Part shown: one piece after another, positions 3,202 through 58,664 of the stretch
Numbering within the stretch: position 1 is the first letter of the stretch
Layout of the letters: every line of letters starts with the position of its first letter
Source: Patescibacteria group bacterium AH-259-L05
Lineage (GTDB): Bacteria; Patescibacteriota; Patescibacteriia; UBA2591; UBA6264
Reading direction: 5' to 3'
Assembly (NCBI GenBank): GCA_027717985.1
Contig: JALLOO010000002.1
Location: 7,257 to 71,256, forward strand
DNA length: 64,000 nt
Notes under the pieces: generated by a model
What the model was told of the DNA's origin: nothing
Databases searched by the model: none
What the model saw: the letters and a program-made list of their open reading frames with translations, nothing else
Made by a program: the position numbers and the translations under genes

Positions 3202-4220
3202 AATAATTTTATTTTTTCCTCTGCTTTTATTAAAAGCCTTTTTATGCCTTTTGCTTTAGATCCTGGATTTGGCTCTAGAAATGCAACGATCGCGGCCATC
3301 TCTAATATTTTTTGAATCTCAAAATAGCTCAAACGTATCTGTTCTGATTTAGTTATGTGCTTTCCAAAATAATTTTGTATAAACCTCTTTCTTATTATAT
3401 CAGCATTTGAAATAAAATCAGGTGCATAATAATGAAACATTGAATCAGTTTGTGCTAAAAATCCGCCAACATCTTCTAAGGGATCCCCTAAAAACGCATG
3501 CCCAAAGTCAATAACTTTAAAACCTGAAGCTGAACTTTTTAATATATTGCCCCAATGAAAATCGCCATGAACCAATCGAAACTGCGATCTATCCAAGAAC
3601 AAATCTTCGTACTGCTTTTTATATACCCAAAGCTTTTTAAGAGTATCACTATATAAGGGATAAAATTGCGGTGCACATTTTCGTACTAAAAAAAACCAAT
3701 GCCGCCGCTCTTTTTTCCCTTGCCCTTCATCTTTTATGGGCAAAAACCGTGGTTGCGCAGATATGTTATGAACTTGTTTTAAAAACTGTGCAATCAAAGG
3801 AGTAAATTGTATAGGAATACGAGGCTTTTGAGACATTAATTCTTCAAATGAAATACCTGGTGCTTCTTTATAAAAGAACATATTTAAAGGCCGATAATAA
3901 TCCAGTGCCATTGCAGTATATGTTTCTAAATTATGTTTTTTAAACCACTGAAGCACAGAATATGCTCGATATGGCGTATCCTGACGCTTATGAATTTTTG
4001 CGCGTACTACTTTAGTCCCCCTATTCGTAATAAGCTCATATTTTAAACTCATATTCCTGAACTTGCCACGAAAATTTCTCACTAAATCAATATGTATATC
4101 AACTAAATTCTCATTCAAGCTTAAAAACTTTTGTTTTCTTTTTGCAAACATCGAAAATATATACGTCTTATCAAGCGCTTTTCTGGCATTAACTTTTCTA
4201 TTAATACTAATAAAAATCAT
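3198..4220 (-). CDS. APH/choline-kinase-like phosphotransferase; possible sugar (maltose-type) kinase by neighbourhood
   Basis: Brenner motif HGDFHWGNIL and VIDFGHA (DFG-like) are present. The start overlaps the GH57 stop with ATGA. Confidence 0.5.
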   Translation of the reverse strand: MIFISINRKVNARKALDKTYIFSMFAKRKQKFLSLNENLVDIHIDLVRNFRGKFRNMSLKYELITNRGTKVVRAKIHKRQDTPYRAYSVLQWFKKHNLETYTAMALDYYRPLNMFFYKEAPGISFEELMSQKPRIPIQFTPLIAQFLKQVHNISAQPRFLPIKDEGQGKKERRHWFFLVRKCAPQFYPLYSDTLKKLWVYKKQYEDLFLDRSQFRLVHGDFHWGNILKSSASGFKVIDFGHAFLGDPLEDVGGFLAQTDSMFHYYAPDFISNADIIRKRFIQNYFGKHITKSEQIRLSYFEIQKILEMAAIVAFLEPNPGSKAKGIKRLLIKAEEKIKLL

Positions 4221-6208
4221 TTCTTTTCCTTAGGCGTAAAGCCTGAGATTTTAAATTTAAACCCCTGCCCGACCGGCGGGCGGGCTTGTCCTGTCCTAGA
4301 AATCCGATAGGGAATGACAACAGTTAAATTTTTAAAAAATACAGGCGACCAGCGATTTGCTTCTGCCAAAACTGCAATTTTTAACCACGTACCCTTGTTT
4401 TCATCATCTTGTTTTACCAGTTTTATAAATTTATGTAATAAGCTTGATGGCGTAATAGTAATTTTTAATTTTTTGCTGCGAAGTTCATATTTACATTGCC
4501 CAGGGCGATGATACGTTCCTGATTTAGGAAATCGTGCCACACTCATTGCATCCCAGCCGCTCTCACCAGGCAAATGTTCAATAAATTCAGATGGCACTTC
4601 ACATAAATAAAAACTATTATATTCATCCCGGAAAAATCCCAAAGGATGACCCATCTGCTTTTTATAATATACTGCTTTAACTTCACGAAAGAGTTGTTGT
4701 GGCTGTTTTTTTACAAATTCTTTTGGCTTGAATGCTTTAAAATGTTTTTTAGCAAATATTGAAAACTCGCCTATATCATGCTCCCAATAATCTTTTAATG
4801 ACGGTAGTTTTCGTGAACGCGCTAAATCATCAACAATATGAAGCACATCATAGATATCCATCTCATTTTTTAACTTATAAATCGCATCGCGCCACTTAAT
4901 TGCCTTTTCAAATTCTTGCGCCTTTACGGCTTTATTCATTTCATCTTCAAATTCTAAAATCATTGCATTAAATTGGCCAGAAAACACGCGCTTTTTATAT
5001 GGCCGTCGGTGAACGGTCCCATATGCTTCTCGGTATGCATGTCGAATCTTGCCAGATCGTTGCCACTCAAACGCAAGATCAATAATCTGGCGATAATACT
5101 CGTGTGCTTTATCTTTTTTATTTTTTGATATATCAGGAATGGAAAATACAATATCTTTTAGTAAAAACGCGCCTGCCTCAATCATTTCCAATGACCACCA
5201 GGGCTTTGCGCTTGCCCACCAAAATTGATCTGACTGTAATGCCTTATCAAGTTTTTCTCTTGCTTCCTTGTAATACGGTGCTTTTGTATCTAATTTATGA
5301 ACTAAATCAATTACAAAATGTGTAAACTCCCATTGCAAATGGTGAATTGGATTTTCTGGATGACTCCATAACGTAAATGAGTGTTGTTTTTCTTTTTCTA
5401 AATAAAAATCCTGCTCTTCAGACGACCAGGTAGAGTCTCGCAGTTCAATTTCCTTATCAATGCCAAACTCTTTAACTAATTCAGAAACAAAAACTTTTTT
5501 AATTTTTTTATCATTATAAATTTGAAACAATAAATTTTCCAAACCGGGTCGATGATGTCCAAATGTTTCTGTATCCATCATGGTTAGAAGATACCGATCT
5601 TTTTCTAATTCATCTTTTCCAATTTCTTCAATAAATGACCGTGCACTTCGTGCAATGGCAGACAAAATTAACACACTAATGCGCTTATCCCGAAAAATAA
5701 TTTTAAAATTATCTAAACCCTTAATAGTATAAATACTTTTAAAATCTGGTTTCTTGGGAGATGCAAGCTCTTCCGCTATAATCCATTGAAATCCTGCCTC
5801 TTTCGCGGCTTCGGCAACCTTAAAACTTAATCCTAATTCTGGTGAAAAAAATCCTTGGGGCTTCCAACTCGCACCAAAATATTTTTTATTTGTTTTTTCA
5901 TTTAATTCAATCTGTCGCTTAATCTCATTCCTCGGTAATAATGGCAAAAACGGGTGATATTTCACCCCACCCGTAAACTCAATTTGTCCACGTTGTGCAA
6001 AACTTTTAATATCCTCAATCACATCCATATATCCATTGTTTGCTAATAATTCTACTAATCCCGCATTAATATTAATGGTAATTTTCATGTTTGGATTCAA
6101 AGACAAGCCGCCGATCACTTTGCGGTAGCTTTCATTAACAATCCGCTCTAAAATATCCAGTTGCTGATTGTATGGCTGATAAAAATGTAGAAAAAATCCC
6201 CACGTCAT
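4217..6208 (-). CDS. glycoside hydrolase family 57 alpha-glucan enzyme (663 aa, with C-terminal extension)
   Basis: The GH57 regions are present: HFYQP, GQIEF, GFFSPELG (nucleophile Glu), DTETFGHH (acid/base Asp) and the QFWWASAKPWW helical-domain motif. Confidence 0.7.
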   Translation of the reverse strand: MTWGFFLHFYQPYNQQLDILERIVNESYRKVIGGLSLNPNMKITININAGLVELLANNGYMDVIEDIKSFAQRGQIEFTGGVKYHPFLPLLPRNEIKRQIELNEKTNKKYFGASWKPQGFFSPELGLSFKVAEAAKEAGFQWIIAEELASPKKPDFKSIYTIKGLDNFKIIFRDKRISVLILSAIARSARSFIEEIGKDELEKDRYLLTMMDTETFGHHRPGLENLLFQIYNDKKIKKVFVSELVKEFGIDKEIELRDSTWSSEEQDFYLEKEKQHSFTLWSHPENPIHHLQWEFTHFVIDLVHKLDTKAPYYKEAREKLDKALQSDQFWWASAKPWWSLEMIEAGAFLLKDIVFSIPDISKNKKDKAHEYYRQIIDLAFEWQRSGKIRHAYREAYGTVHRRPYKKRVFSGQFNAMILEFEDEMNKAVKAQEFEKAIKWRDAIYKLKNEMDIYDVLHIVDDLARSRKLPSLKDYWEHDIGEFSIFAKKHFKAFKPKEFVKKQPQQLFREVKAVYYKKQMGHPLGFFRDEYNSFYLCEVPSEFIEHLPGESGWDAMSVARFPKSGTYHRPGQCKYELRSKKLKITITPSSLLHKFIKLVKQDDENKGTWLKIAVLAEANRWSPVFFKNLTVVIPYRISRTGQARPPVGQGFKFKISGFTPKEKK

Positions 6209-6240
6209 ACTAATAGTATACCATTTTATCCAAACAAAAA

Positions 6241-6270
6241 AAGCCAGCTGAATGCTGGCCTTTTTGAAAA
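6241..6270. terminator. hairpin GCCAGCUGAAUGCUGGC flanked by an A-run and a T-run (bidirectional terminator-like)
   Basis: AAAAAGCCAGCTGAATGCTGGCCTTTTTG lies immediately 3' of the 6290..6814 gene. A near-identical copy sits 3' of the 7140..7703 gene. Confidence 0.5.
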
Positions 6271-6289
6271 GAACAAATCCATTATGGGA

Positions 6290-6814
6290 TTACAATTTTT
6301 TGACTCTATACGGCTCTCTAAACTCTACATGTCTTATGTTATCGAAAGGAATAAATTTTATTTCAGGATCATCAGATTTATATTGATATCTAATCTCAAC
6401 ACAATCTCTCTTAACCTTTAATACTATTGTCGGAAAATAAAACGACCCACTCTTTATACGCAAACCAATCACCTGTCCAGACTTCTTTGCTTTTATAAAG
6501 CGGCTTTTAAGACTTTCTCTCGTTGCGGCTACATCTCTTTGTTTTGAGAGGCCAAAAGCTGACACATCCCCTATAGTCCCTATCTCGTCTAAAGGAAAGG
6601 TTATTCTAGAAGCAGTCCTTTTCTGGTTATCTCTACTAACATATTCAATTTCACTAATATATTCAAACTCAACATAATCTTTTCCGATTTTTACAATTTC
6701 TACCGCTTTATAGAATGAACTCGAATGCTTATTGCCTTTTGTTCGAATATTTGGTTTAAGTCCGGCCTGCCAAAATTTCTCAAGACATTTTCGAACTATT
6801 TTTCTTTCAAACAT
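6290..6814 (-). CDS. hypothetical protein, paralog A of a tandem pair, with an internal two-fold repeat
   Basis: Shares IRTxGxxxSSSFxKxVxIxxxGKDYVEFE...FPLxEI...IRHVEFxxPxxVK with the 7140..7703 protein. A strong SD (GAGGAGG) precedes it. Confidence 0.5.
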   Translation of the reverse strand: MFERKIVRKCLEKFWQAGLKPNIRTKGNKHSSSFYKAVEIVKIGKDYVEFEYISEIEYVSRDNQKRTASRITFPLDEIGTIGDVSAFGLSKQRDVAATRESLKSRFIKAKKSGQVIGLRIKSGSFYFPTIVLKVKRDCVEIRYQYKSDDPEIKFIPFDNIRHVEFREPYRVKKL

Positions 6815-6985
6815 AGATTACCTCCTCTTCGTTCGGGCTTTCAAACCCATGTTTGAAAAGAACTAATTTTACGGGGCCAAAACACCTTGTCCAGTCCTTC
6901 CCCGCGTTCAGACTAGACGCCCTCTTTCTCAGGGAGTAAAACTACCCTGCATTCTCTTTATACCATAATCACCAAACCCTGTCAA
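6815..6985 (-). promoter_or_regulatory. conserved promoter (TTGACA-17-TATAAA) plus ~140-nt 5' leader, copy 1
   Basis: On the minus strand TTGACAgggtttggtgattatggTATAAA is followed by a leader with hairpins CAGGG..CCCTG, CGGGG..CCCCG and TTCAAAC-atgg-GTTTGAA, then the SD. It is about 90% identical to 7704..7872. Confidence 0.55.
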
Positions 6986-6989
6986 CCTC

Positions 6990-7080
6990 TTTTTTTGTCA
7001 TTCCGCAGGACCCCTTTGTCATTCCTCACGAGCAGAGCAAGAGAAGGTGATGCGGAATGAAAGGGAGAATGACATCAACA
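6990..7080. repeat. GTCATTCCGC-family palindromic repeat element
   Basis: tgtcattccgcagg...tgcggaatga...gaatgacatc, with inverted-repeat arms. Confidence 0.5.
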
Positions 7081-7139
7081 TGTCTCTCCAAAGAAAAAGC
7101 CAGCACAATATGCTGACCTTTTTGAAAAGAACAAATCCA

Positions 7140-7703
7140 TTACGAGCTTTCTTTGACTTTTCGTGGCTTTTCAAACTCTACGTGCCTTATTTGGCTAAAA
7201 AGAATAATCATTAATTTGAAGTCCCCACCTTTTTTTGGTCTATGCTTAATCACTATATGATCTTTTCCCACGCTCCATATAGTTATATTAGAAAAAAATG
7301 ATCTTGCTCTCGTACGCAAAGCAATTTCTTTTGCTGAATGCTGTACTTCCTTAAAACGCTTCTTAAGGCTTTTTCTTTTATGCGTATGCGCCTCTTTAAT
7401 AAAACTGTCAACCTTTTTCTGTTTTGAAGACTTATAAACTGCTTCTCTACCAAATCCATTAAAAAACTCTACCTGTGCTATTTCCCGTAAGGGAAAAGTT
7501 GTAGTTTGATAAAAAATTCCTTTCTGTGAATTTGACCTATGTTCAAACTCAACATAATCTTTCCCCACGTCTAAAATCCATACATACTTAAAAAACGATG
7601 AACTCCATGAATCTCCCGTTGTCCTAATATGTGGATGCTGTTGGTTTAGCCGAAATCTCTCGAGTATTTTTCTAAGGGTATTCAGCTTCATTTTCTCAAA
7701 CAT
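7140..7703 (-). CDS. hypothetical protein, paralog B of the tandem pair
   Basis: Same architecture as the 6290..6814 protein. It has its own copy of the promoter/leader and of the terminator. Confidence 0.5.
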   Translation of the reverse strand: MFEKMKLNTLRKILERFRLNQQHPHIRTTGDSWSSSFFKYVWILDVGKDYVEFEHRSNSQKGIFYQTTTFPLREIAQVEFFNGFGREAVYKSSKQKKVDSFIKEAHTHKRKSLKKRFKEVQHSAKEIALRTRARSFFSNITIWSVGKDHIVIKHRPKKGGDFKLMIILFSQIRHVEFEKPRKVKESS

Positions 7704-7872
7704 AGTTTCTCTCCTTCATTCGGTCTTTCAAACCTATGTTTGAAAAGAACTGATTTTACGGGGCCTAAACACCTTGTCTAGCCCTTCCCCGCGTTCGGAC
7801 TAGACGCCCTCTTTCTCAGGGAGTAAAACCACCCTGCATTCTCTTTATATCATAATCACCAAACCCTGTCAA
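7704..7872 (-). promoter_or_regulatory. conserved promoter (TTGACA-17-TATAAA) plus 5' leader, copy 2
   Basis: Near-identical to 6815..6985, including the -35/-10 boxes at 7867-7872 and 7844-7849. Confidence 0.55.
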
Positions 7873-7980
7873 CTCAAAAAACAAAAAGCCAGCACAACGC
7901 TAGCCTAAATATATAAATATCTTTCAATTAAGTGAAATATTTTGGTGCATAATCTTTCAGTACACTGAAAGCTTTTATTA

Positions 7981-9318
7981 TTATGAAATTTGTAAAAATC
8001 GCGGTGTTAAATAAAAGGGAAGAGACACAAGAGTAACATTTTTATTATTAACTTTAACTCGCTTTCTTTTCAGCTCCCCGCCATATATTCTCATAAGGTG
8101 ATGATTTTTTACTGCTTTAGAAAATTCATATAGAGATCGCAGTCTTCCCGCTTTTCCTGATTTTACTTCTATTCCCATAATTTTCCCTTTATTATTTAAA
8201 CAAAAATCAATTTCCGCACTCCCTAAGCGTCTTTCTCGAGCCCAATAAAAAAGTTGTGCAGGGGCTTCTACAAACTGAGCTATAATATTTTGTCCAACAA
8301 CTTGTTCTGCTATTTTCCCACGATAGAACTCATTAAGATTAGTAAGATTTGTATAGTTTTCTTGAATGCCCATTTGATGATTTACTAGGCCTACATCTAA
8401 AAATAAAAGTTTTTTAGGCCGTTTTCTCTGAGGAACTAAAGGGAGGTCTGCTGATTTCGTTGCCTGAACTTGATATAAAAGCATCACCTTCTCTAACGTT
8501 GTAAACGCCGCGTTCATTTCACGACTTCTATAATTAGAATCACCAAATTTTTCATAGGTAATCGTGGTGCCTGCAAAAAGCGGCGCTGTTCCAATGATGT
8601 AGGTCAAGTATTTAACATTTGCTGAAGAGCTATATTTATATACATCTTCACTATAAGAAGTAAAAAGCGAAGAATAAACGCTTTTAAGCTTACTTATATT
8701 ATCTTTTTCTAAAAATAGTTTCACTATCTCCGGCATTCCTCCGACCATAGTATATTCATAAAATAACTTGAGCGCTTGTTGATGAATACCTTGAGGAATC
8801 TCTTTATTTAAGGATATGGTTTTTAAAAATTCTAAAAGCTGTATTTCTCCCTTGGCTTCTAAATACTCAAAAAAGTCTAAAGGGTAAAGATAAGCATATT
8901 CTATCCTCCCAACCGGCAGAGAAAATCCCTCTTTTTCAATTTTAGCTTGGAGTAAAGAGCCTGCCGCAATAACATGAATATTAGGCCTTTCTTCATAGAA
9001 AAATCGCAATAGTTTAATTAATATGGGAGAATTCTGGATTTCGTCAATAAAAATCAACGTCTTTCCCGGAATGATTTTTTGACGGAACTTTATCTGAATA
9101 ATTTTTTCAAAATCATCTAAAGAAAGCTCACTTTTAAAAAGGGCGAGATGTTCTGCTTTTTCTAAATTTATATAAATAAGATTTTTAAAATATTTTTTGC
9201 CAAACATTAAAATAGCAAAGGTTTTTCCAACCTGTCGAGCACCTCGTAAAATTAATGGTTTTCTTTCTTTTTTATTTTTCCAGTCCACTAAATAATTAAT
9301 GATTTTTCTGTTAAACAT
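7981..9318 (-). CDS. AAA+ ATPase of the COG1373/DUF4143 type
   Basis: Walker A ILRGARQVGKT and Walker B LIFIDEIQ. The likely true start is MFNRKIINYLVDW at 9318; the ORF-track start at 9387 is an upstream extension. Confidence 0.6.
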   Translation of the reverse strand: MFNRKIINYLVDWKNKKERKPLILRGARQVGKTFAILMFGKKYFKNLIYINLEKAEHLALFKSELSLDDFEKIIQIKFRQKIIPGKTLIFIDEIQNSPILIKLLRFFYEERPNIHVIAAGSLLQAKIEKEGFSLPVGRIEYAYLYPLDFFEYLEAKGEIQLLEFLKTISLNKEIPQGIHQQALKLFYEYTMVGGMPEIVKLFLEKDNISKLKSVYSSLFTSYSEDVYKYSSSANVKYLTYIIGTAPLFAGTTITYEKFGDSNYRSREMNAAFTTLEKVMLLYQVQATKSADLPLVPQRKRPKKLLFLDVGLVNHQMGIQENYTNLTNLNEFYRGKIAEQVVGQNIIAQFVEAPAQLFYWARERRLGSAEIDFCLNNKGKIMGIEVKSGKAGRLRSLYEFSKAVKNHHLMRIYGGELKRKRVKVNNKNVTLVSLPFYLTPRFLQIS

Positions 9319-9479
9319 AGGTACTAACTTATTACAAATTATGTCATAACTTAGTACTAAGTTACTACAATTTCTACCTATTGTCAATACTAGTTTTCCA
9401 CAGCCTATTTCTAAATATAAATCAAAAACAAAAAGCCAGAAACAATTATATCTCTGACTTTTTAATAAATGTGTTGAGA

Positions 9480-10907
9480 TTAATAATCAAACACTGGATC
9501 AATATCAATCGGAATGCCTTTAAGAGATTTACACATCCGTCTTATTTCATCAGGGACTCCTCCCCATTTATCCACGAACTGCTTAACTACCTCATAGTCA
9601 TTTGCCTGCGACAGTTTATAAAACTCATCGCCTAAGGTACTAATTGCACTGTGGAAACAATCAGGATTAAACTCAAATCCTTGACCACTAAATCGAAATG
9701 CGCCGTGTTTCAAAAGCCAATTGTATTGAACGAGTGTAGCAACCGCATGCGCCTCTTCTAAACTCAATCTGACTTGGCGCAAGCCATCTACAACCCGACT
9801 AATAACAGCATTCTTAGCAATATCCTGCTCTATTATTCCTTGATCAGCCAAGAAAAACAGAAAGAGTATACCAAAGACATCTGCTTTTGCCTCTTCAAAA
9901 GACGGACCAAAATCTAAAAATTCCTTTCTGTCGCCAAATCGAATACTAATTCCATGAGACAACTCGTGTCCGAGCACAAACAGAAAATAAAGATCCTTAT
10001 TAAGTACAGAAACTGCTTCAGAAGATAAGACACGCTTTGCAATAGGAAGTGTCAAAAGATTAAACTTTGCATCCATAACATTCCGCATAAATGTCTTTTT
10101 CGAGCCAACTTGTTCATGAATGTCTTTATCGTTTGGTAAATTACATGCCATAGGAACAAACCCATACAGCGCCCCACCGCTCGCCATAACTTCATCAATA
10201 ACCACCATTGGGATTAGAGTGTTACGCGGCATATACCCATAGTTCTTACCTAGATATGCATCAAACTCTATAGCGAACTGCTGATAATACTGTGCCATTT
10301 GATTTACCTCTTTTTTTACAACACCAACGATACCCTCAAAATCTCGCTTGATACTAAACAATGAATCATCATAACTCTCATACGGGCCGATAATCAATTC
10401 AAAAGGTGCACCAACACATCGTACCCACTCTTTATCAATCTGCTTAAATCCATTGGTGCGAAATGCATGCGCCTTCCCTAATAAAAATTTCTTGAACTGT
10501 GAATGGTCAGTAAACTCTGCTGCCTGTTCAAGTAATTGCGCTATCTCATCAAGTTGCTCTTGATAAACTTCTGAATAAAGAATTGCCCTAAGCCTATCAC
10601 CGTCCCGTTCTACATTAGTAAACGGACTCAAAAGCGCTTCTTTATCTTCAGGATGAACTTTTAGATACGCATCAAACTCTTCACGCGTTAAATCAGGTGG
10701 ATAAAAATTGTTTCCTCTTGATCTATCAAAAACGTCGCCTGTTTCCTCTAAGTCCTGCCTCATCTGCGCAAGATAGATTGGGTTAATCTGATCTACGGCC
10801 TTGATAAGCAACCGAAGCACTTTTCTATCATCTTCTCCAAGATGTGAAATATCTGCCCTAATAGGTGCGCGAATATGTTCATCTGGTTTACCAGTTGCAT
10901 GAGCCAT
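9480..10907 (-). CDS. HExxH zinc-metallopeptidase-like protein (DPP III/M49-like motif spacing)
   Basis: VLGHELSHGI, then EEAKADVFG 19 residues later (second Glu ligand). By eye this gene is GC-richer than its neighbours. Confidence 0.4.
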   Translation of the reverse strand: MAHATGKPDEHIRAPIRADISHLGEDDRKVLRLLIKAVDQINPIYLAQMRQDLEETGDVFDRSRGNNFYPPDLTREEFDAYLKVHPEDKEALLSPFTNVERDGDRLRAILYSEVYQEQLDEIAQLLEQAAEFTDHSQFKKFLLGKAHAFRTNGFKQIDKEWVRCVGAPFELIIGPYESYDDSLFSIKRDFEGIVGVVKKEVNQMAQYYQQFAIEFDAYLGKNYGYMPRNTLIPMVVIDEVMASGGALYGFVPMACNLPNDKDIHEQVGSKKTFMRNVMDAKFNLLTLPIAKRVLSSEAVSVLNKDLYFLFVLGHELSHGISIRFGDRKEFLDFGPSFEEAKADVFGILFLFFLADQGIIEQDIAKNAVISRVVDGLRQVRLSLEEAHAVATLVQYNWLLKHGAFRFSGQGFEFNPDCFHSAISTLGDEFYKLSQANDYEVVKQFVDKWGGVPDEIRRMCKSLKGIPIDIDPVFDY

Positions 10908-11199
10908 TTCATACCTCCTCGTTTTACCTATTGAAAAGAACCAAAATCACCATTGTTAAGTCTATCAAACTTCTCCTCTCTTGTCAACCCCTCAAAGCAA
11001 AAACAGGGACTATAATCTAGCCCCTGCTCTTTTTCCAATACTTGAACGTAAGCCATAAACCTACAAGAAACATGCTTAAACCAAGATAGGGAAATTCCTT
11101 CAGTAAAAATATTTCAAAAAGCGACTCTGACACGCTCAACGCCCACCATATCACAATACCAATGCGCTCTTTCGTCATTATGTCCTCCTTGTTTATATA

Positions 11200-11275
11200 A
11201 GAACCTGCTCGCTCCGCTCACAGAACCTTGAAGTTTGGAAGGGGCGATATTTGTATTCAAACTTTAAGAACCACT
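11200..11275. repeat. composite AAGAACC...GAACCTTG / aagtttgaaagg...tatttgtat..aagaacc element
   Basis: aagaacctgctcgctccgctcacagaaccttgaagtttggaaggggcgatatttgtattcaaactttaagaacc; the same arrangement recurs at 45768..45866. Confidence 0.55.
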
Positions 11276-11309: not shown

Positions 11310-12563
11310 TCAAGTAGTATTCTTCATTTTCTCAATTGCAGGCAACACTATCCTTTCTATAGCTTGTCGGGAGTGTTGATAATAAGGTTTCCATGCTCGC
11401 TTGGCAAAATAATGCCAGCCAACACAAGAATGAACTGCTGGTAATGTGCTCTTTAAAACTTTTTTAAACTCTTTATCTTTCAATGCTTTTTGCAATCCTC
11501 CGTATTTTTTAACTTTTTGTCGAAAAATAAAATTGTATTCTTTAACTAATTCCTGCCACTCTACAATTCTTCTTCTTCTTAAAGGTTTCCGTTTTCTCCA
11601 CATTCTTCCATATTTATTTGGCTGCCACCATGGAAACGGGTCTTTTGGTGTTGAATCCATTTCCCATGACGCAGGTAAAATCTTAGAAATAGGAAATGAT
11701 TTCGCTTTTGACCAATTAAATTGTGAGGGTAGACAAAAATCTATTTTATCCTTTACTTTTACAAACACCCCCATATCTTTTGCCTTTGATCTTTGATCGA
11801 TTTTCCGTAAGCCTTTTTTTGAACCTGCATTTTCCCAATCCCGCATTAAAACAAAGACATTTTTCTGCAAATACTCTAATACTTGTAAAAAAATTTTAGG
11901 TGAATGAACTGTTCTGCGAACCCGAGCCCATACCAGATCTTCTGGTAAGTGTTGCGGCCGCCTCACATATTTGGGTCGTTTCCGATAATCCTCAGCATTC
12001 ATAAACAAATCTTTAAATAAACAACTATAGACTATTGCGCGTTGGTATCCATCCCTGAACTTAATACACACGGGCCCATGAAAATTATATCTCCCCAACG
12101 ATTTATCAGGAATTAAAAGTATAAGATCGGGAAATATTTCATGGACTATTTTAAGTGTACGTTTATCTACAGCCCCTTCTGGCGGCCAAAACCATGTTGC
12201 TTTGCCTAAAAATTTTTCAACAACCTCTCGATCCAAAATAATCTGGGCTCGGATTAAATCGCTTGATAACATAGGCAAGATAGCATGAGAATAAGCGCTC
12301 GTTCCAATTTCAATGTTCCCGTATTGTTTAGCAATTTTTAAATTTGCAAGCGTCTTTGTAGCCAATTGCCCAATATCTGAACTCGCTCCCAACCATGATT
12401 CAATGGTCCACCCCTGAAGCTGAACGCCACGCAGAATTATACCATGCTTCATAGCTAAAGAAGTGGGTAAAAACTTGACCGTAAGATTTGTTTTCACCCA
12501 CTTCGGTATAAATGTTTTTGGATCAAATGGCTGATAGCCATGAATTAAATCATAAAAATGCAT
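11310..12563 (-). CDS. divergent GH57-like protein
   Basis: IHGYQPF (region I-like), GNIEIGTSAYSHAILPML (region II-like) and WFWPPEGAV (nucleophile region). Region IV is not obvious. Confidence 0.45.
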   Translation of the reverse strand: MHFYDLIHGYQPFDPKTFIPKWVKTNLTVKFLPTSLAMKHGIILRGVQLQGWTIESWLGASSDIGQLATKTLANLKIAKQYGNIEIGTSAYSHAILPMLSSDLIRAQIILDREVVEKFLGKATWFWPPEGAVDKRTLKIVHEIFPDLILLIPDKSLGRYNFHGPVCIKFRDGYQRAIVYSCLFKDLFMNAEDYRKRPKYVRRPQHLPEDLVWARVRRTVHSPKIFLQVLEYLQKNVFVLMRDWENAGSKKGLRKIDQRSKAKDMGVFVKVKDKIDFCLPSQFNWSKAKSFPISKILPASWEMDSTPKDPFPWWQPNKYGRMWRKRKPLRRRRIVEWQELVKEYNFIFRQKVKKYGGLQKALKDKEFKKVLKSTLPAVHSCVGWHYFAKRAWKPYYQHSRQAIERIVLPAIEKMKNTT

Positions 12564-12576
12564 AATTTAAATTATT

Positions 12577-13800
12577 TTACTTCCAATCAGAAATTGTTTC
12601 AATAACTATATATTTACCAGATATTTCTCGCTGCCCTATCTCCTCCAATATATTCTGATGAATCTTTTCAACCTTTCGTAATTCAGGATCTGATAAATTT
12701 GATTTCAAAAGAGACGCTATTTTCAAAAACTTCTCAACATTGATCTTAATTATATTTGGATTCCACCATGGCTTCGCACTTGCCCACCAATATTGATCAG
12801 AGGCAAACGCCTTGTCTAATAACTTTCTCGCCCTTTTGTACTGAGGGCTATTATCGTATTTCTTAATTAATTTAATAATAAAATGAGTTAACTGCCATTG
12901 TAATTTATGAAGATCATTATCTGGATGAGACCATAATGCATATGGTATGTCCTGCTTTAAATCCTTTATCTCTGATGCCCAACTACAAGCTAAAGGATCA
13001 ATCTGTTTAATCGGAGTATCTTTTAATAAATGCAAATATTGGGAATAAGTAATCGTTTTAATCTCTTTCTGGTCTAAAATCTTTGCCCATATATCAATTA
13101 AATGCGCGCGGTGATGTCCTAAGGTCTCTCCGTCAAATGCAGTGACTAAAAATGTGTCTGATCGTCCGTCGTGTTTCACGCTTTGAAGAAACTTATCAAC
13201 CGAATCTAACCATGTCCCAAAAAAGATTAAACTTACTCCACGATTTCGAAAAGTCACTTTAAGATTTTTTTTCTTACCTTGATTTCGAAATAAATCCTTT
13301 ATTTCGTATCGTCTATTAAATGAAACATGATTAAATGTATTATCATATGCAATCTCATCTAAAACAATCCATTCATATCCTAAACTTTGAATAATACGCG
13401 CAGTTTTTTTATCATATGCTAACTCTGGCAAAAAAAATCCTTTTGGCCGCGGCCGCCACACACTTTTAAAATACTTTTGATTAATATTTTCATTCAGCTT
13501 TATTTGACGGATTATTTCTGATTTTGATAAAAACGGTAAAATTGGATGATACTTGGCTGATCCAACAAACTCAATTTGACCATTTTCAGCCAACTTTTTA
13601 ATCCGCTCAAGTATATGTATATATCCATACTCGACCAGCTTCTCTGTTAAGCTTGCGCAAATATTTAAGGTAATTTTTGCATTTGGCCGTGCTTCTAAAA
13701 TAGACAAAATCTTATCATACGATTCAGTTACTACTTTATGTATAATTTTTTTTGTTTGAAAATATGGCTGATAAATGTGTAATAAATTTGCCCAATACAT
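12577..13800 (-). CDS. glycoside hydrolase family 57 enzyme (407 aa)
   Basis: LLHIYQP, ENGQIEFVGSAKYHPILPFL, GFFLPELAYD, FDGETLGHH and DQYWWASAKPWW. Paralog of the 4217..6208 protein. Confidence 0.7.
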   Translation of the reverse strand: MYWANLLHIYQPYFQTKKIIHKVVTESYDKILSILEARPNAKITLNICASLTEKLVEYGYIHILERIKKLAENGQIEFVGSAKYHPILPFLSKSEIIRQIKLNENINQKYFKSVWRPRPKGFFLPELAYDKKTARIIQSLGYEWIVLDEIAYDNTFNHVSFNRRYEIKDLFRNQGKKKNLKVTFRNRGVSLIFFGTWLDSVDKFLQSVKHDGRSDTFLVTAFDGETLGHHRAHLIDIWAKILDQKEIKTITYSQYLHLLKDTPIKQIDPLACSWASEIKDLKQDIPYALWSHPDNDLHKLQWQLTHFIIKLIKKYDNSPQYKRARKLLDKAFASDQYWWASAKPWWNPNIIKINVEKFLKIASLLKSNLSDPELRKVEKIHQNILEEIGQREISGKYIVIETISDWK

Positions 13801-29518: not shown

Positions 29519-32500
29519 ATGTCAAAACATAAATCAAAATCACAATGGCGGTCTAAAAAAATTAGTTCGCCAAAAAAATCAAAATTCACCAAGAAAAAGT
29601 TATCTCCGGCGGAGCAAAGTCTTCAAAAAGCAAAAAAAACCACCGCACCAAAACGAAAAATAAAACGAGCTAAACCCCAACCCCGTACCAAAACAAGTTC
29701 GGTACGGGGCAAGAAAACAAATCTGGTGAAAAAGCTTTTTATTTTTATTATTTTTCTCGTCCTTGTCTTTGGTGCAATCGGGAGCATCAGTCTATTTTTG
29801 CTTACCAAAAGCCTGCCGCATCCAGAAAAATTAATAGAGCGAAGTATTGCCCAAAGTACGAAAATATATGCCCGAGATGAAAAAACACTGTTATATGAAA
29901 TATTTTCTGAACAAAGGCGAACCGTAGTTGATCTGGAAAAAATTCCTCAGCATCTTGTCTATGCCACTATTGTTTCAGAAGACAGAGATTTTTTTACTCA
30001 TCCAGGATTTGATATTTCTGGGATTGCGCGCGCCATTCTCGTTGATATTCTTCGCGGAGGTAAAGTTCAAGGTGGCTCAACCCTCACCCAGCAGTTTATA
30101 AAAAATGCCTTTTTAACGCGAAAAAAAACATACACCAGAAAAATCAAAGAACTGCTCATGGCATATCAAGTTGAAAAAAAATTTAGCAAACTTGAAATAC
30201 TTCAGATGTACTTTAATGAAATTCCCTACGGATCAAATGCATATGGCGCTGAAGCAGCGAGTCAAATCTATTTTTCAAAATCAGTACGCGACCTAACGTT
30301 AGATGAAACAACGCTCTTAGCTGCGCTTCCGAAAGCGCCTACCTATTACTCTCCCTATGGTCAACACACTGAAGAACTACTTTTTCGCCAACACTTTATT
30401 TTAGATGTTATGACTGAAGAAGGATATATTACCTCTTCGCAGGCTTTGCAGGCTAAAAGCATTAATACGTTAGAAAAAATTACGTCACGTCGTGAAAATA
30501 TTCGCGCTCCTCACTTTGTCTTCTACGTGAGAGAATTATTAACTGAAAAATACGGTGATCGTCTTGTAGAACAGGGCGGGCTCAAGGTTATTACCACACT
30601 TGACTTTGACAAACAAACAATTGCAGAACAAGCAATTGAAAAATATGCAGAGCGTAATGAAGAAATATTTGATGCTACAAATGCGGCATTAGTTGCCATT
30701 GATGTAGATACCGGACAAATTCTTGCTATGGTAGGATCAAAAGATTTTTTTAACGAAGAAATTGATGGCCAAGTAAATGTAGTAACACGAGAACGTCAAC
30801 CAGGATCATCCTTTAAACCAATTGTCTATGCGACCGCATTTGAAAAAGGCTATACCCCTAATACAATTATATTTGATGCAGAAACAAGTTTTGGCCCTAA
30901 AACACCTGAACCAGATGCCCAAGATTATATCCCGCGAAACTATGATGAAAAATTCAGGGGTCCGGTTAGTATGCGAAAAGCATTAGCAGGATCATTAAAT
31001 ATCCCAGGTGTAAAAACAATGTATTTAGCAGGGGTTAATAACGTTTTAAACACGGCGGAACGTATGGGCTACACTACCTTAGAAGACAGAGAACAATACG
31101 GTCTCTCGCTTGTTTTAGGAGGGGGAGAGATAAAACTATTAGAACATGTAGCAGCTTTTGCTATTTTTGCCCGTGAAGGTGTTAAAATCCCTACAACGAG
31201 TATTTTAAAAGTGGAAGATAACAAAGGTAATATTTTAGAAGAATTACCTAAAAAACCCAAACTTCCTCAAACAGTATTTGATCCGCAAATCGCCCGGCTC
31301 ATCAATGACATCTTATCTGATAATCAATCACGGGCGTTTATGTTTGGCTATCAAAACTTTTTAACACTCCCTAATCGGCCTGTTGCCGCAAAAACAGGTA
31401 CTACCAATGACTTTCGTGACGCGTGGACTGTTGGCTTTACGCCAAATCTTGCAGCTGGTGTATGGGTGGGGAATAACAACAATGATGTAATGGGTGAAAA
31501 AGCTGATGGTTCAACGGTTGCCGCGCCCATTTGGAATGAATTTATGAAGCGTGCCTTAGAAAATACCTCTCCTCAACCATTTACTCCTCCTGAAACAATC
31601 TACGTAGACAAGCCAATATTAAACGGGGAAATCCCTGGGAAAATTACGCTCAAAATTGACACGGCATCAAAAAAATTAGCAACTGAGCTCACGCCTGACT
31701 CACAAATAATAGAAAAAACCTTTGTAAGCTTTTATCCTATTCTCTACTACATAGATAAAAATAACCCGCAAGGACCGCTCCCCTCAAACCCAAAAGCTGA
31801 TTATCAATATGAATTCTGGGAAGAGGGAATTACCAACTGGCTTACTGCCGTATCTGAATTACTTGCCTCACCAGCTTCTCCCTCTGTCATCCTGCCACTT
31901 CAGGATGACAAAGAGGAGGGACAGGATGACAAAGAGGAGGGACAGGATGACAAAGAGAGCGTCATCCCGAGCGAAGACGGGGAAGGCCCCAAAGTTGTTA
32001 TTTCTGATTTTATATTTGACCTTGCGCTTGAAGGACTTGAAATACCACCAACTGAATATGATGATGTCCATATTCCAGCAAATGAACCGTATATAAAAAT
32101 TCTTTCTCCTTCAAATAATACAATCATTAATGAAAATGTTATTCGGATAAAGGTAGAAGCATCAGCGCCGCGTGGACTTAAAAAAATAACATGTTCTATT
32201 GATGATGCACCGCTTGATAGTATTGTGGTAAACAGCCCAAATATTCAGTCATACACCTGTGTCCTTGGCCTTAGCGGGATCTCTTCGGGAAAGCATACTA
32301 TTAAAGCAACCGCGCTTGATGATGTTGGTAACAACAATACCGACGCTATTCAAATAATTACCGCTCAAGGATTTGAAAGGACATTTGAATGGCTTTCACC
32401 AAAAAATAATGATGTGGTATATCAAGGTAATTTTCCACTCACACTCTCAGTTCTCACTCCGCCGACTAAAATCAATACGATAAAGTTTTTCGCACAAAAT

Positions 32501-38614: not shown

Positions 38615-38706
38615 TTAAATTCGTCATTCGTCATCCCACACCCCATTCGTCACCTCGCAACTTTTAGCTGCAGGGTGGCACTTTTTCTTGTCATCCAGCT
38701 TCGCGG

Positions 38707-38812
38707 GATGATAAAGTGATGGGATGACAAAGGAATAGGATGACAAAGTGATGGGATGACAAAGGAATAGGATGACAAAGTGATGGGATGACAAAGGAAT
38801 AGGATGACAAAG
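38707..38812. repeat. tandem array: 3.3 copies of the 32-nt unit gatgacaaagtgatgggatgacaaaggaatag (built from 16-nt gatgacaaag-like subunits)
   Basis: Direct repeats with no spacers, preceded by tcgtcattcgtcatcccaca and gtcatccagcttcgcgggatga hairpins. Confidence 0.7.
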
Positions 38813-42199: not shown

Positions 42200-42232
42200 T
42201 CCCTGTATCAACTACAGGGGTTTTTCTTTTTG
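42200..42232 (+). terminator. rho-independent terminator CCCTGTAtcaactaCAGGGG+T-run
   Basis: Immediately 3' of the 1089-aa gene. Confidence 0.6.
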
Positions 42233-42251
42233 TCATTCCGCGACCTTTTTT

Positions 42252-42283
42252 TGTCATTCCGCGACCAGTGGTCGCGGAATGAC
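42252..42283. repeat. GTCATTCCGCGACC palindromic element
   Basis: gtcattccgcgaccagtggtcgcggaatgac is a perfect 14-bp stem, preceded by a second tgtcattccgcgacc half-copy. Confidence 0.6.
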
Positions 42284-42351
42284 AAAGGTGGGTTGACTTT
42301 TTTCTAAAATCTGTCATGATATAAATAACTAATACGTAAAGGAGGTATGCT

Positions 42352-44636: not shown

Positions 44637-44682
44637 AAAAACACTTATTCTGGTTAGTGCTTTGCGCTCCACAGTTAGTATA

Positions 44683-44722
44683 AGAACCTGCTCGCTTCGC
44701 TCGCAGAACCTTGAAATCCCTT
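44683..44722. repeat. AAGAACC-family element
   Basis: aagaacctgctcgcttcgctcgcagaaccttgaa. Confidence 0.55.
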
Positions 44723-45729: not shown

Positions 45730-45767
45730 ACCATTACTATACACCTTTTTTATATTTTTGTTAAGAA

Positions 45768-45866
45768 AACTATAAGAACCATGCTTCGCAGAACCTTGAA
45801 GTTTGAAAGGAATGATATTTGTATCCAAACTATAAGAACCATGCTTCGCAGAACCTTGTTGTTCGC
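45768..45866. repeat. two direct copies of an AAGAACC-family element separated by aagtttgaaaggaatgatatttgtatcc
   Basis: aaactataagaaccatgcttcgcagaaccttg appears twice; the arrangement is shared with 11200..11275. Confidence 0.6.
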
Positions 45867-50049: not shown

Positions 50050-50352
50050 TATTGTTTTTGTCATTTCGACCGAGCGAACGAAGTGAGCGAGTGGAGAAAT
50101 CTCATACGTTTACGATAAATGAATGGTGTGAGATTCCTCGTCACGACTACGTCGTGACTCGGAATGACAAGGTGGGAGGTTTACTCGCTCTTCGTAAAGA
50201 CTTTTTCAGAGGTCTCATAATAAGAACCTTCCTTACTTTGTTCGGAGGAACTTTGAAGAGATATCTTTGATGTCATTGCGAGGAGCAGAGCGACGAAGCA
50301 ATCTCATGTATGAGATCCCTCGCTGCGCTCGGGATGACACTGCGTGTCATTT
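50050..50352. repeat. block of long imperfect palindromes of the GTCAT...GGATGACA family plus one AAGAACC-family element (50213-50252)
   Basis: tgtcattgcgaggagcagagcgacgaagcaatctcat/atgagatccctcgctgcgctcgggatgaca, and gtcatttcgaccgagcgaacgaagtgagcga...gtcgtgactcggaatgaca. Confidence 0.55.
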
Positions 50353-57653: not shown

Positions 57654-58664
57654 TTATTTTAATGCTTCTTGGCTCGCAATTACTTCTAGAATTTCGTTCG
57701 TAATAGCAGATTGGCGTGCTTTGTTATAAAACAAGGTGAGATTTGTTAGAATTTCTCCTGCATTATCAGATGCATTTTTCATCGCAACCATTCGTGCAGA
57801 ATGTTCAGACGCATTTGTTTCTAAAATCATATGGTGGATTTGAATTTTAACTAAGAGGGGTAAAAGTTTGTCAAGTATTATTTCTTGTGATGGTTCAAAT
57901 ATATATTCGTAGTTATATGGAGATGAAGTTTGTTTTTTCCTTGACTCGCTTTGCTCGCTCGGAATGACAGGGGAGGGAGAGGGCTCGCTCGGAATGACAG
58001 GGGAGGGAGAGGGCTCGCTCGGAATGACAGGGGAGGAAGAGGCATATCTGACGGATTGGGGAGTAATCCCTTTGACAATTTCTTCAATCCCCATTTTTGT
58101 AATTGGTAAAACTTGGCGGATAACAGGATCTTGTTTTAGCGTGGAAATAAAGTTGGTATATGCGCACATAATTTTTTTATATTGACCGTTTTTATATATA
58201 TCAATAATTTTTTCAGCAAAAGGCAGTGTTTGTTCTAACTTTATATAATCACCAAAACCAGTAAATTCATAATGTACGGGTATATTTCGAAAATCAAAGT
58301 ATTTCTTTGCTTTTTTCCCAACCGTGATAATATCGATATCATCGTTTTTTTGAATGTAAGCATGCGTCTTTTTTAGCATATTATTATTATATCCGCCACA
58401 TAAACCTTTATCACTGGTAATGATAACAAGACATAGTTTGTTTGTCTGCGTTTTTTTTCTTAGTAAGAGGTGACGCTTTTGAGACACTTGTTCACTTACA
58501 TTTGAAAGAAGTTTGAGCGCATGTTCTGTATAAGGACGAGCATTGAGCGCATATTCTTGCGATCGCCGCATCTTAGTTGCGGAAACTGCTTCCATTGCAC
58601 GGGTAATTTGCTGCGTGTTTTTAATTGAGCGCATTCTGCGCTTTATATCTCGTCGAGATTCCAT
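57654..58664 (-). CDS. atpG: F1 ATP synthase gamma subunit with repeat-encoded insertion of roughly 45 aa
   Basis: The gamma N- and C-terminal helices are conserved. The internal SSSPVIPSEPSPSPVIPSEPSPSPVIPSEQSE is encoded by a 3x30-nt tandem repeat at 57953-58042. Confidence 0.85.
   Translation of the reverse strand: MESRRDIKRRMRSIKNTQQITRAMEAVSATKMRRSQEYALNARPYTEHALKLLSNVSEQVSQKRHLLLRKKTQTNKLCLVIITSDKGLCGGYNNNMLKKTHAYIQKNDDIDIITVGKKAKKYFDFRNIPVHYEFTGFGDYIKLEQTLPFAEKIIDIYKNGQYKKIMCAYTNFISTLKQDPVIRQVLPITKMGIEEIVKGITPQSVRYASSSPVIPSEPSPSPVIPSEPSPSPVIPSEQSESRKKQTSSPYNYEYIFEPSQEIILDKLLPLLVKIQIHHMILETNASEHSARMVAMKNASDNAGEILTNLTLFYNKARQSAITNEILEVIASQEALK

Follow-up and report, generated by a model that had tools for sequence, protein, structure and literature searches.

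A structured leader RNA before tandem genes for predicted small beta-barrel proteins in an accessory island of Patescibacteria

Some bacterial proteins act on the 5' untranslated region (5' UTR) of their own message. Hfq represses its own translation via its 5' UTR (PMC6348989), and the leaders of ribosomal protein genes and the thrS operator are further parallels to the locus described here. This locus lies in a 64,000-nt stretch of Patescibacteria group bacterium AH-259-L05 (contig JALLOO010000002.1, positions 7,257 to 71,256; "the window" below refers to this whole stretch, numbered from its first letter). The AH-259-L05 (L05) genome comes from a single cell of the Atlantis Massif subseafloor (PMC8406227). 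On the minus strand of the window, two adjacent genes, A and B, each form a cassette with a near-identical promoter and leader and a near-identical terminator, and a third copy of the cassette is present in a sister single-cell genome, AH-259-L07 (L07). The cassettes represent a genuine, previously undescribed RNA leader and protein family of a conventional kind, in which a structured, putatively cis-regulatory 5' UTR precedes a predicted small-barrel protein resembling nucleic-acid binders. Tentatively, and with a confidence that stops a little short of even, the leader is interpreted as a translational operator whose most likely effector is the encoded protein; the contrast between near-constant control regions and diverged open reading frames (ORFs) would then arise mainly from control regions that were recently shared or homogenised beside old ORFs.

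As with Hfq self-repression (PMC6348989), a structured leader surrounds the ribosome-binding site. The cassette proteins are basic, each of their repeats is predicted to form an N-terminal helix and a five-stranded bent barrel that superposes on Hfq, and the L07 protein matches RimP and spliceosomal Sm proteins. However, the cassette protein carries two barrels in one chain and has no sequence or profile likeness to Hfq, and its family is hypervariable and confined to two genomes, whereas Hfq is highly conserved. Like the ribosomal protein leaders and the thrS operator, the leader is a multi-helix 5' UTR that encloses the Shine-Dalgarno (SD) sequence and the start codon upstream of a gene for a small basic protein. 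Unlike them, it corresponds to no Rfam leader family, and the gene it precedes is an accessory orphan rather than a core gene. In its size, helix number, invariant junctions and loops, possible pseudoknot and mutually exclusive start-region helices, the leader also resembles a riboswitch with a translational platform, but it lacks a known class, a ligand-related gene context, a wide distribution and a consistent switch.

Two other comparisons concern the cassette as a whole. Hypervariable loci with conserved flanks include the central region of flagellin fliC, staphylococcal agr and the pneumococcal comCD pherotypes. The cassette ORFs are likewise deeply diverged alleles amid more conserved flanks at one chromosomal site, although the divergence extends over the entire ORF instead of one domain, and only three alleles are known. 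Phage morons are autonomous promoter-gene-terminator inserts. The cassette genes similarly have their own promoter and terminator and lie between unrelated genes in an accessory island, but they have no phage context and no viral sequence homologue.

If the operator interpretation is true, the locus would supply a new cis-regulatory RNA motif and a new tandem Sm/SH3-like protein family. It would also be a compact natural case of a constant regulatory module whose protein diverges to 25-40% identity between sister genomes. A constant module with a diverging protein usually marks conflict or recognition genes, and what intrigues most about the locus is that a hypervariable ORF is enclosed by a conserved control module, next to a candidate defence ATPase on an accessory island. 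Gene regulation in bacteria of the candidate phyla radiation is poorly understood; in a brief full-text literature search, no description of an Hfq-type RNA chaperone from these bacteria came up.

Tandem cassettes and their distribution

The first-pass annotation of the window, made from its letters alone, had described two adjacent paralogous minus-strand genes of 187 and 174 aa, and this description holds at the positions listed in Table 1. Proteins A and B are 36% identical by BLASTP (E 3e-30) and 42% identical in a global alignment. From the -35 element to the ATG, the control regions of A and B are 91.2% identical, and the larger upstream blocks (7692-7873 and 6805-6986) align without gaps at 89% identity; the likeness has its exact start at the -35 TTGACA. 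A 29-nt leader core occurs twice in the window, compared with 0.00 expected occurrences. At the other end of the cassettes, identity over the 40 nt from the stop codon is 90% (3' blocks at 7110-7149 and 6252-6291), and both blocks run into G+C hairpins with T-runs. Thus a TTGACA-17-TATAAA promoter within a near-identical block before each gene, and near-identical terminators after each, are both present as first proposed. The coding regions are not as similar as the leader: in aligned codons, nucleotide identity is 58% (51% at third positions) versus 91.2%.

The promoter consists of TTGACA, a 17-nt spacer and an extended -10 element, TGnTATAAA. Across the three copies the TG is constant and the "n" is the sole variable base of this element (A, G or C), which is the pattern expected of a working promoter. 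A promoter scan that demanded T at hexamer position 6 overlooked promoter A, and a third promoter-like copy in the window (58245-58272) lies within the ATP synthase gamma gene and was rejected as a chance match. Each cassette forms a transcription unit of its own with strong signals, in which a sigma-70-type promoter and an intrinsic terminator enclose a folded 5' UTR, a strong SD and an ORF. The earlier description of these units as a tandem stands, but it omitted a third homologous terminator, T0, after the ATPase gene. With T0, three related terminators bracket the two units, a layout expected from unequal crossing-over. In the inter-cassette spacer, upstream of two copies of a dispersed repeat (GGAATGACAAA), the words GTCATTC and TTCATTCC resemble inverted, imperfect copies (by eye, unscored).

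Protein searches (a word-indexed search of 5.8 billion proteins and an exhaustive HMMER search of 1.84 billion cluster representatives) returned A, B and one L07 protein, P0003 (188 aa), which is 25-31% identical to A and B. The sole other match, a repetitive protein of 1028 aa, was spurious. The L07 gene is syntenic, standing between the ATPase gene and the GH57-UVR gene, and a recognisable copy of promoter and leader lies ahead of it. When a covariance model was built from the three leaders, it found only those three in the window and nine related loci (179.9 bits for leader A, 174 bits for leader B). Degenerate leader patterns matched only the L07 locus among GTDB species representatives, and two independent leader patterns had no match in JGI metagenomes. 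The one leader-pattern match in IMG/VR fell in GC-rich coding sequence and was discarded as chance; protein patterns found nothing in IMG/VR, nor did DNA or protein BLAST in phage and plasmid collections.

These searches bear directly on the idea that the cassette is a mobile element, either a phage-derived moron or a miniature inverted-repeat transposable element (MITE)-like sequence, present at many loci. In favour of it, the layout of promoter, gene and terminator recalls that of morons, the surrounding island is accessory and includes a candidate defence ATPase next to the unit, and dispersed short repeats flank cassette B. However, the collections searched hold three known copies only, the single match among GTDB representatives being the L07 locus itself, and PHROGs gave nothing significant. 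The idea is largely refuted and has hardly any probability left; the leader is not a mobile element at many unrelated loci.

The leader RNA

The consensus structure of the leader was obtained with RNAalifold from the three copies (A, B and L07), and its helices are listed in Table 1. The consensus energy is -38.65 kcal/mol, with a structure conservation index (SCI) of 0.90 and a z-score of -3.65 against column shuffles (0 of 200 as good), and the antisense strand of the same alignment reaches only -25.7. Single-sequence z-scores of the leader are -3.87 (leader A) and -2.10. Standard pairs fill 97.4% of the pair cells, versus 27-53% when the partners are slid by 1-3 columns. Thirteen pairs are variable; ten of these are paired in all copies, three of the ten having changed on both sides, and the other three are each broken in one copy (14 of 500 shuffles match the observed pair counts, a control that does not amount to a probability). 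In one double change that links leader and ORF, codon 2 of L07 reads CTT instead of TTT, and its leader has a corresponding A-to-G change. Together these results are suggestive, not proof, of a genuine sense-strand RNA structure that holds the SD in a loop and has the start codon paired within a helix. The structured leader claimed under each promoter is thus upheld as a strand-specific fold with pair-preserving and compensatory changes, although with three copies in two single-cell genomes both the RNA structure and the evolutionary mechanism lie beyond statistical proof.

With several helices in about 135 nt and with unpaired blocks that do not vary (GAGAAAGA, GAACGCGGGGAAGG and GGCCCCGUA), the leader might instead be a small-molecule riboswitch. 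Helices P1-P3 would then form the aptamer, and P4, in competition with an anti-start helix, the translational platform. Within such an aptamer the loop CGGGG could form a pseudoknot with a downstream CCCCG; these positions are invariant. The 5' arm of P4 could pair instead with the AUG and first codons, to which it is likewise complementary, and this alternative anti-start form is the more stable one in A and B, by 3.7-5.6 kcal/mol. In L07 the energetics are reversed, the anti-start form being disfavoured by 6.3 kcal/mol, and an ON/OFF switch model was set aside, its energetics being inconsistent between the copies. Riboswitches usually recur across taxa, ahead of transport or biosynthesis genes. 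Here there are three copies only, all before one orphan, non-metabolic gene, with none beyond L07 in GTDB species representatives and none in JGI metagenomes or IMG/VR. Nor does the leader belong to a described family. At the gathering threshold, Rfam 15 found only tRNA in the whole window, and between 6100 and 8100 the leaders had no match even at E<=10, in agreement with an earlier comparison by eye that had found the leader unlike known riboswitch classes. A riboswitch is accordingly a very unlikely identity for this leader.

The first-pass annotation had also allowed for a small RNA (sRNA). A strong promoter followed by a stable structured RNA would suit an independent sRNA or a transcription attenuator that gives a short terminated transcript, and there is a sub-threshold Rfam likeness to Hfq-binding sRNAs. 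However, these weak, terminator-driven matches are all confined to the 3' terminator blocks and do not touch the leader. None of the hairpins within the leader has a U-run behind it: CCGAAUGAAGGAG comes after P4, and the structure continues straight into the SD and the AUG. The lack of a U-run makes attenuation or a short sRNA unlikely, and, with the other points, this option loses nearly all of its weight.

Two other features of the leader were considered. In both L05 leaders an AUG at the predicted transcription start opens a 7-codon ORF, MQG(G/S)FTP-stop (7837-7814 and 6950-6927, minus strand). As a leaderless upstream ORF (MQGGFTP) it was rejected: a 1-nt deletion in L07 loses the frame and extends it to 34 codons, and the changes are compensatory at the RNA level. 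The 7-codon ORF is probably noncoding. The word GUUCUUUUCAAA, which is present in the leader and in the 3' UTR, was entertained as a site of 5'-3' pairing or a shared protein site and dropped, since it is absent from the L07 3' UTR; a near-copy that precedes the M49-like gene likewise lacks conservation.

The encoded proteins and the origin of the contrast

Each cassette protein contains a two-fold internal repeat, as had been noticed at the outset: the N-terminal and C-terminal halves align with scores of 74 and 60, and shuffled sequences score about 30 +/- 6 (0 of 300 reach the observed score in either protein). Across the six repeats of the three proteins, only an F and a D are invariant; the IRHVEF motif is present in two of the six, and the YKHAI-type Sm2 motif of Hfq is absent. 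The proteins are strongly basic, with 40 K+R among 187 residues in A and 37 among 174 in B (19 and 22 D+E, respectively), which is consistent with nucleic-acid binding. They were thought to belong to no recognised family, and indeed none of the three had a significant match in Pfam, NCBIfam, PHROGs or PADLOC, nor did the six single repeats where these were tried.

AlphaFold2 models were built from the three-sequence alignment, with a pLDDT of 79.1 and a pTM of 0.76 for B and 76.8 and 0.74 for the L07 protein. In both models DSSP assigns a helix and then five strands, twice, and from them ORF A can be expected to encode two repeats of the same helix plus five-stranded small beta-barrel. Foldseek searches of the Protein Data Bank (PDB) with the B model returned mostly Hfq chains (target-normalised TM 0.62-0.83, rmsd 1.6-5.2 A, probability 0.99-1.0, E 0.02-0.16), followed by designed SH3-like barrels, CgeA, integrase C-terminal domains and tandem Tudor domains. 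The L07 protein matched RimP best (E 1.5e-3), and then spliceosomal Sm proteins and integrase SH3-like domains. In a viral structure library, phage proteins with an "Hfq-like domain" were among the matches. A profile of the repeats searched against PDB sequences gave noise only and no Hfq. On these models, the cassette protein is predicted to be a tandem small beta-barrel of the Sm/SH3 type, outside the Hfq family. It is conceivable that a putative trimer of such tandem repeats forms a pseudo-hexamer.

The leader-ORF contrast can be measured between all three copies. Leaders are 91% (A-B), 85% (A-L07) and 80% (B-L07) identical, and the corresponding amino-acid identities of the ORFs are 42%, 27% and 30%. 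The L05-L07 leader identity of 80-85% is similar to that of the flanking genes (84-95%) and below that of the ATPase gene (98%), and the leader has diverged about half as much as background synonymous sites. Synonymous divergence (dS) is 1.3-3.3 for the cassette ORFs, at amino-acid distances where NG86 estimates are unreliable, versus 0.51 for GH57-UVR, 1.06 for the M49-like gene and 0.06 for the ATPase (L05 versus L07 for these three). At conserved residues the fraction of identical codons is 0.57-0.60 in the cassette ORFs, 0.79 in GH57-UVR and 0.96 in the ATPase, and the saturated value is 0.46. The ORF differences include every substitution type, with transitions about equal to transversions, as well as many indels, and affect the whole ORF. 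Mutagenesis of the diversity-generating retroelement (DGR) type was rejected because there is no adenine bias and the whole ORF varies; the window was not scanned for a reverse transcriptase. At the ORF start the nucleotide identity is 0.71-0.73 over the first ~15 codons, with a gradual decay.

Judged with the third copy and the flanking genes, it is the ORF, more than the leader, that is anomalous. Being near synonymous saturation, the ORF bodies are older than the surrounding genomes or mutate faster at all sites, and the leaders are as young as the species split, or younger. The island as a whole is a mosaic of modules of very different ages. Selection on the leader RNA and gene conversion had been offered as alternatives; the two are better read together than as an either/or. 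RNA selection alone would need to hold ~170 nt, promoter spacer and loops included, at a rate ~10-fold under the ORF synonymous rate. This exceeds what is usual for structured RNAs between old paralogs, so a recent shared origin or homogenisation is needed too.

Concerted evolution might in fact be the only process at work. The blocks would then be alike by recent tandem duplication or gene conversion and might double as flanks for recombination, the ORFs would have been replaced by old alleles or be under diversifying selection, and the leader would be an ordinary UTR with no regulatory role of its own. The A-B leader divergence of 9% is smaller than the divergence between genomes and sits beside ORFs near saturation; the promoter spacer and loops are nearly identical in A and B; homologous terminators surround the units; and both the unequal ages of the island modules (ATPase dS 0.06 versus 1.06 for the M49-like gene) and the gradual decay of identity into the ORF fit this explanation. 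Less easily explained are a likeness that begins exactly at the -35 box and stops at the ORF edges, stem substitutions that are overwhelmingly pair-preserving, with three double compensatory changes, and a strand-specific fold far more stable than shuffled controls. The L05-L07 leader, which diverges about half as much as background synonymous sites, is a further difficulty. Concerted evolution alone seems somewhat unlikely, though still a serious contender.

In the operator interpretation, the leader would keep the SD and the AUG region within structure. The encoded basic Sm/SH3-like protein, as the most likely effector, would bind its own leader and so exert negative feedback, as Hfq does on its 5' UTR and ribosomal proteins do on their leaders. 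The fold, the basic charge and the position of the SD and AUG within structure make the protein a candidate for binding RNA or its own leader. With near-identical leaders in one genome, either paralog might regulate both units. The control regions could owe their recent shared origin or homogenisation to a tandem duplication that used the repeated terminators, to gene conversion or to recombination between flanks; the ORF bodies would be old or fast-diversifying alleles, and functional constraint on the leader would add to the contrast.

Several points weigh against this interpretation. A hypervariable protein acting on a conserved operator is awkward unless its few invariant residues make up the surface that binds. 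The leader tree and the ORF tree agree in shape, both placing A with B apart from L07, and a single history with an abnormally fast ORF is possible. Covariation support is modest, as there are three sequences, two of them from one genome, and the start-region helices show no consistent switch between the copies. On the protein side, no Foldseek E-value is below 0.001, and small beta-barrels are a very promiscuous fold (bioRxiv 10.1101/140376). When the six repeats were compared by hhalign with four Hfq cores (approximate sequences), the probability was 0.1%, and Pfam gave no Hfq or LSM match, even for single repeats at E<=10. It is because of the weak E-values, the hhalign result and the promiscuity of the fold that the protein is labelled a tandem barrel and is not assigned to the Hfq family.

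A more speculative interpretation takes the cassette to be a swap-in locus for hypervariable tandem Sm-like RNA-binding proteins. Promoter, leader and terminator would serve both as an expression and feedback module and as homologous flanks for the exchange or duplication of ORF alleles. The proteins would diversify by recognising or blocking the RNAs of viruses or of the host bacterium of this episymbiont, a role in conflict that is set beside the candidate defence ATPase. This we consider decidedly unlikely.

The accessory island and other features of the window

The cassettes are part of an accessory island of ~4.7 kb that comprises a gene for an M49-like peptidase, a gene for an AAA_14/DUF4143 ATPase and the cassette(s). 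The island lies between two GH57 genes, where its insert starts just past the terminator of the upstream gene, and it is present only in the two Atlantis Massif Patescibacteria single-cell genomes, with two tandem cassettes in L05 and one in L07.

Table 1. Positions of the cassette features and the other island genes in the window
Feature	Position	Strand	Details
ORF A (MYX06_00755)	7140-7703	minus	187 aa; basic orphan with two repeats
ORF B (MYX06_00750)	6290-6814	minus	174 aa; paralog of A
Promoter A	7844-7872	minus	-35 TTGACA 7872-7867; 17-nt spacer; extended -10 TGATATAAA, hexamer 7849-7844
Promoter B	6957-6985	minus	-35 TTGACA 6985-6980; 17-nt spacer; TGGTATAAA, hexamer 6962-6957
Leader A	7704-7840	minus	5' UTR of ~135 nt; RNAalifold consensus
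Leader A, P1 hairpin	7836-7817	minus	
Leader A, P2/P3 long stem-loop	7809-7761	minus	invariant loop GAACGCGGGGAA at 7796-7785
Leader A, P4 hairpin	7746-7725	minus	UUUUCAAAC pairs with GUUUGAAAG
Leader A, P5 weak helix		minus	SD GGAG (7714-7711) in loop; AUG (7703-7701) in stem
Leader B	6815-6953	minus	same helices as leader A
Conserved 3' block and intrinsic terminator A	7093-7149	minus	stop codon, then GGTCAGCA...TGCTGGC, then T-run
Conserved 3' block and intrinsic terminator B	6236-6291	minus	GCCAGC, ATTCA loop, GCTGGC, T-run
Terminator T0, after ATPase gene	7886-7906	minus	homologous to terminators A and B; upstream edge of duplicated unit
Inter-cassette spacer	6994-7092	minus	two dispersed GGAATGACAAA copies (6994-7004, 7015-7025)
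AAA_14/DUF4143 ATPase	7981-9318	minus	445 aa from conserved ATG; Pfam
M49-like metallopeptidase, first island gene	9480-10907	minus	475 aa; Pfam PF03571, E 2.7e-13; 64% identity to L07 copy, dS 1.06

Pfam identifies both AAA_14 and DUF4143 in the gene directly upstream of the cassettes, as first annotated. The longer ORF of this gene (7981-9387) matches PDC-S01 in PADLOC (E 1.9e-150), and the cassette proteins themselves have no PADLOC match. PDC-S01 is a single-gene candidate defence system, and a functional link to the cassette is not implied. Between L05 (7981-9318) and L07 (locus L001, 4181-5518) the ATPase protein is 97.5% identical, with a dS of 0.06 and 97-100% identity in 60-nt windows. 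The tract of high identity runs from the start codon to the terminator, and the surrounding genes have dS values of 0.5-1.1. This suggests either a very recent single-gene transfer or sweep between lineages or cross-contamination of single-amplified genomes (SAGs) on one plate.

Six close relatives, found through GH57-UVR (70% to at least 90% identity), are all without the island. Five of them have GH57-UVR immediately after the GH57/deacetylase gene, and in the sixth, L008, the upstream GH57 gene and GH57-UVR lie 300 nt apart. A relative without the island, L005, has an IS605 OrfB/Cas12f-like TnpB gene (9447-10652) between the APH and PHP genes of the same conserved cluster, which shows that insertions recur in this neighbourhood.

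At the left edge of the island is one copy of a repeat of ~80 nt (AAGAACC...GAACCTTGAAGTTTG...), found at 11191-11273, 44674-44715 and 45767-45863. The left-edge copy lies upstream of a 53-aa ORF (11017-11178, minus strand) that is absent in L07 and has, by eye, a hydrophobic stretch suggesting a putative membrane protein. Three GH57-family genes occur in a row (12583-13743, 11323-12566 and 4217-6208), one with a polysaccharide-deacetylase-like match and one with a UvrB/C motif, and this arrangement is conserved across the relatives. Segments of GH57 DNA at 5195-5379 and 12763-12935 are ~70% similar, which indicates old paralogy. GH57-UVR itself (start 6208, minus strand) has no visible SD, and a TATACT box within 6209-6235 lies 6 nt before its ATG; its mRNA would therefore be leaderless or nearly so.

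The repeat in the inter-cassette spacer (GGAATGACAAA or GGATGACAAAG) has 17 copies in the window with at most 1 mismatch, compared with 2.3 expected. Its sites (6994-7025, 21123, 25031, 31896-31963, 38690-38812, 42229-42286, 43747 and 50158-50190) form intergenic tandem arrays with 16-nt and 21-nt units; a REP-like element and a protein-binding site are two possible identities. A separate, perfect 30-nt tandem repeat of three units (57953-58042) contains the word GGAATGACA (GTCATTCC on the coding strand). It is in frame within the ATP synthase gamma gene (ORF 57654-58664, minus strand; Pfam PF00231, E 7.8e-88), to whose product it adds a Pro/Ser-rich insert, ...SPVIPSEPSP... repeated three times.

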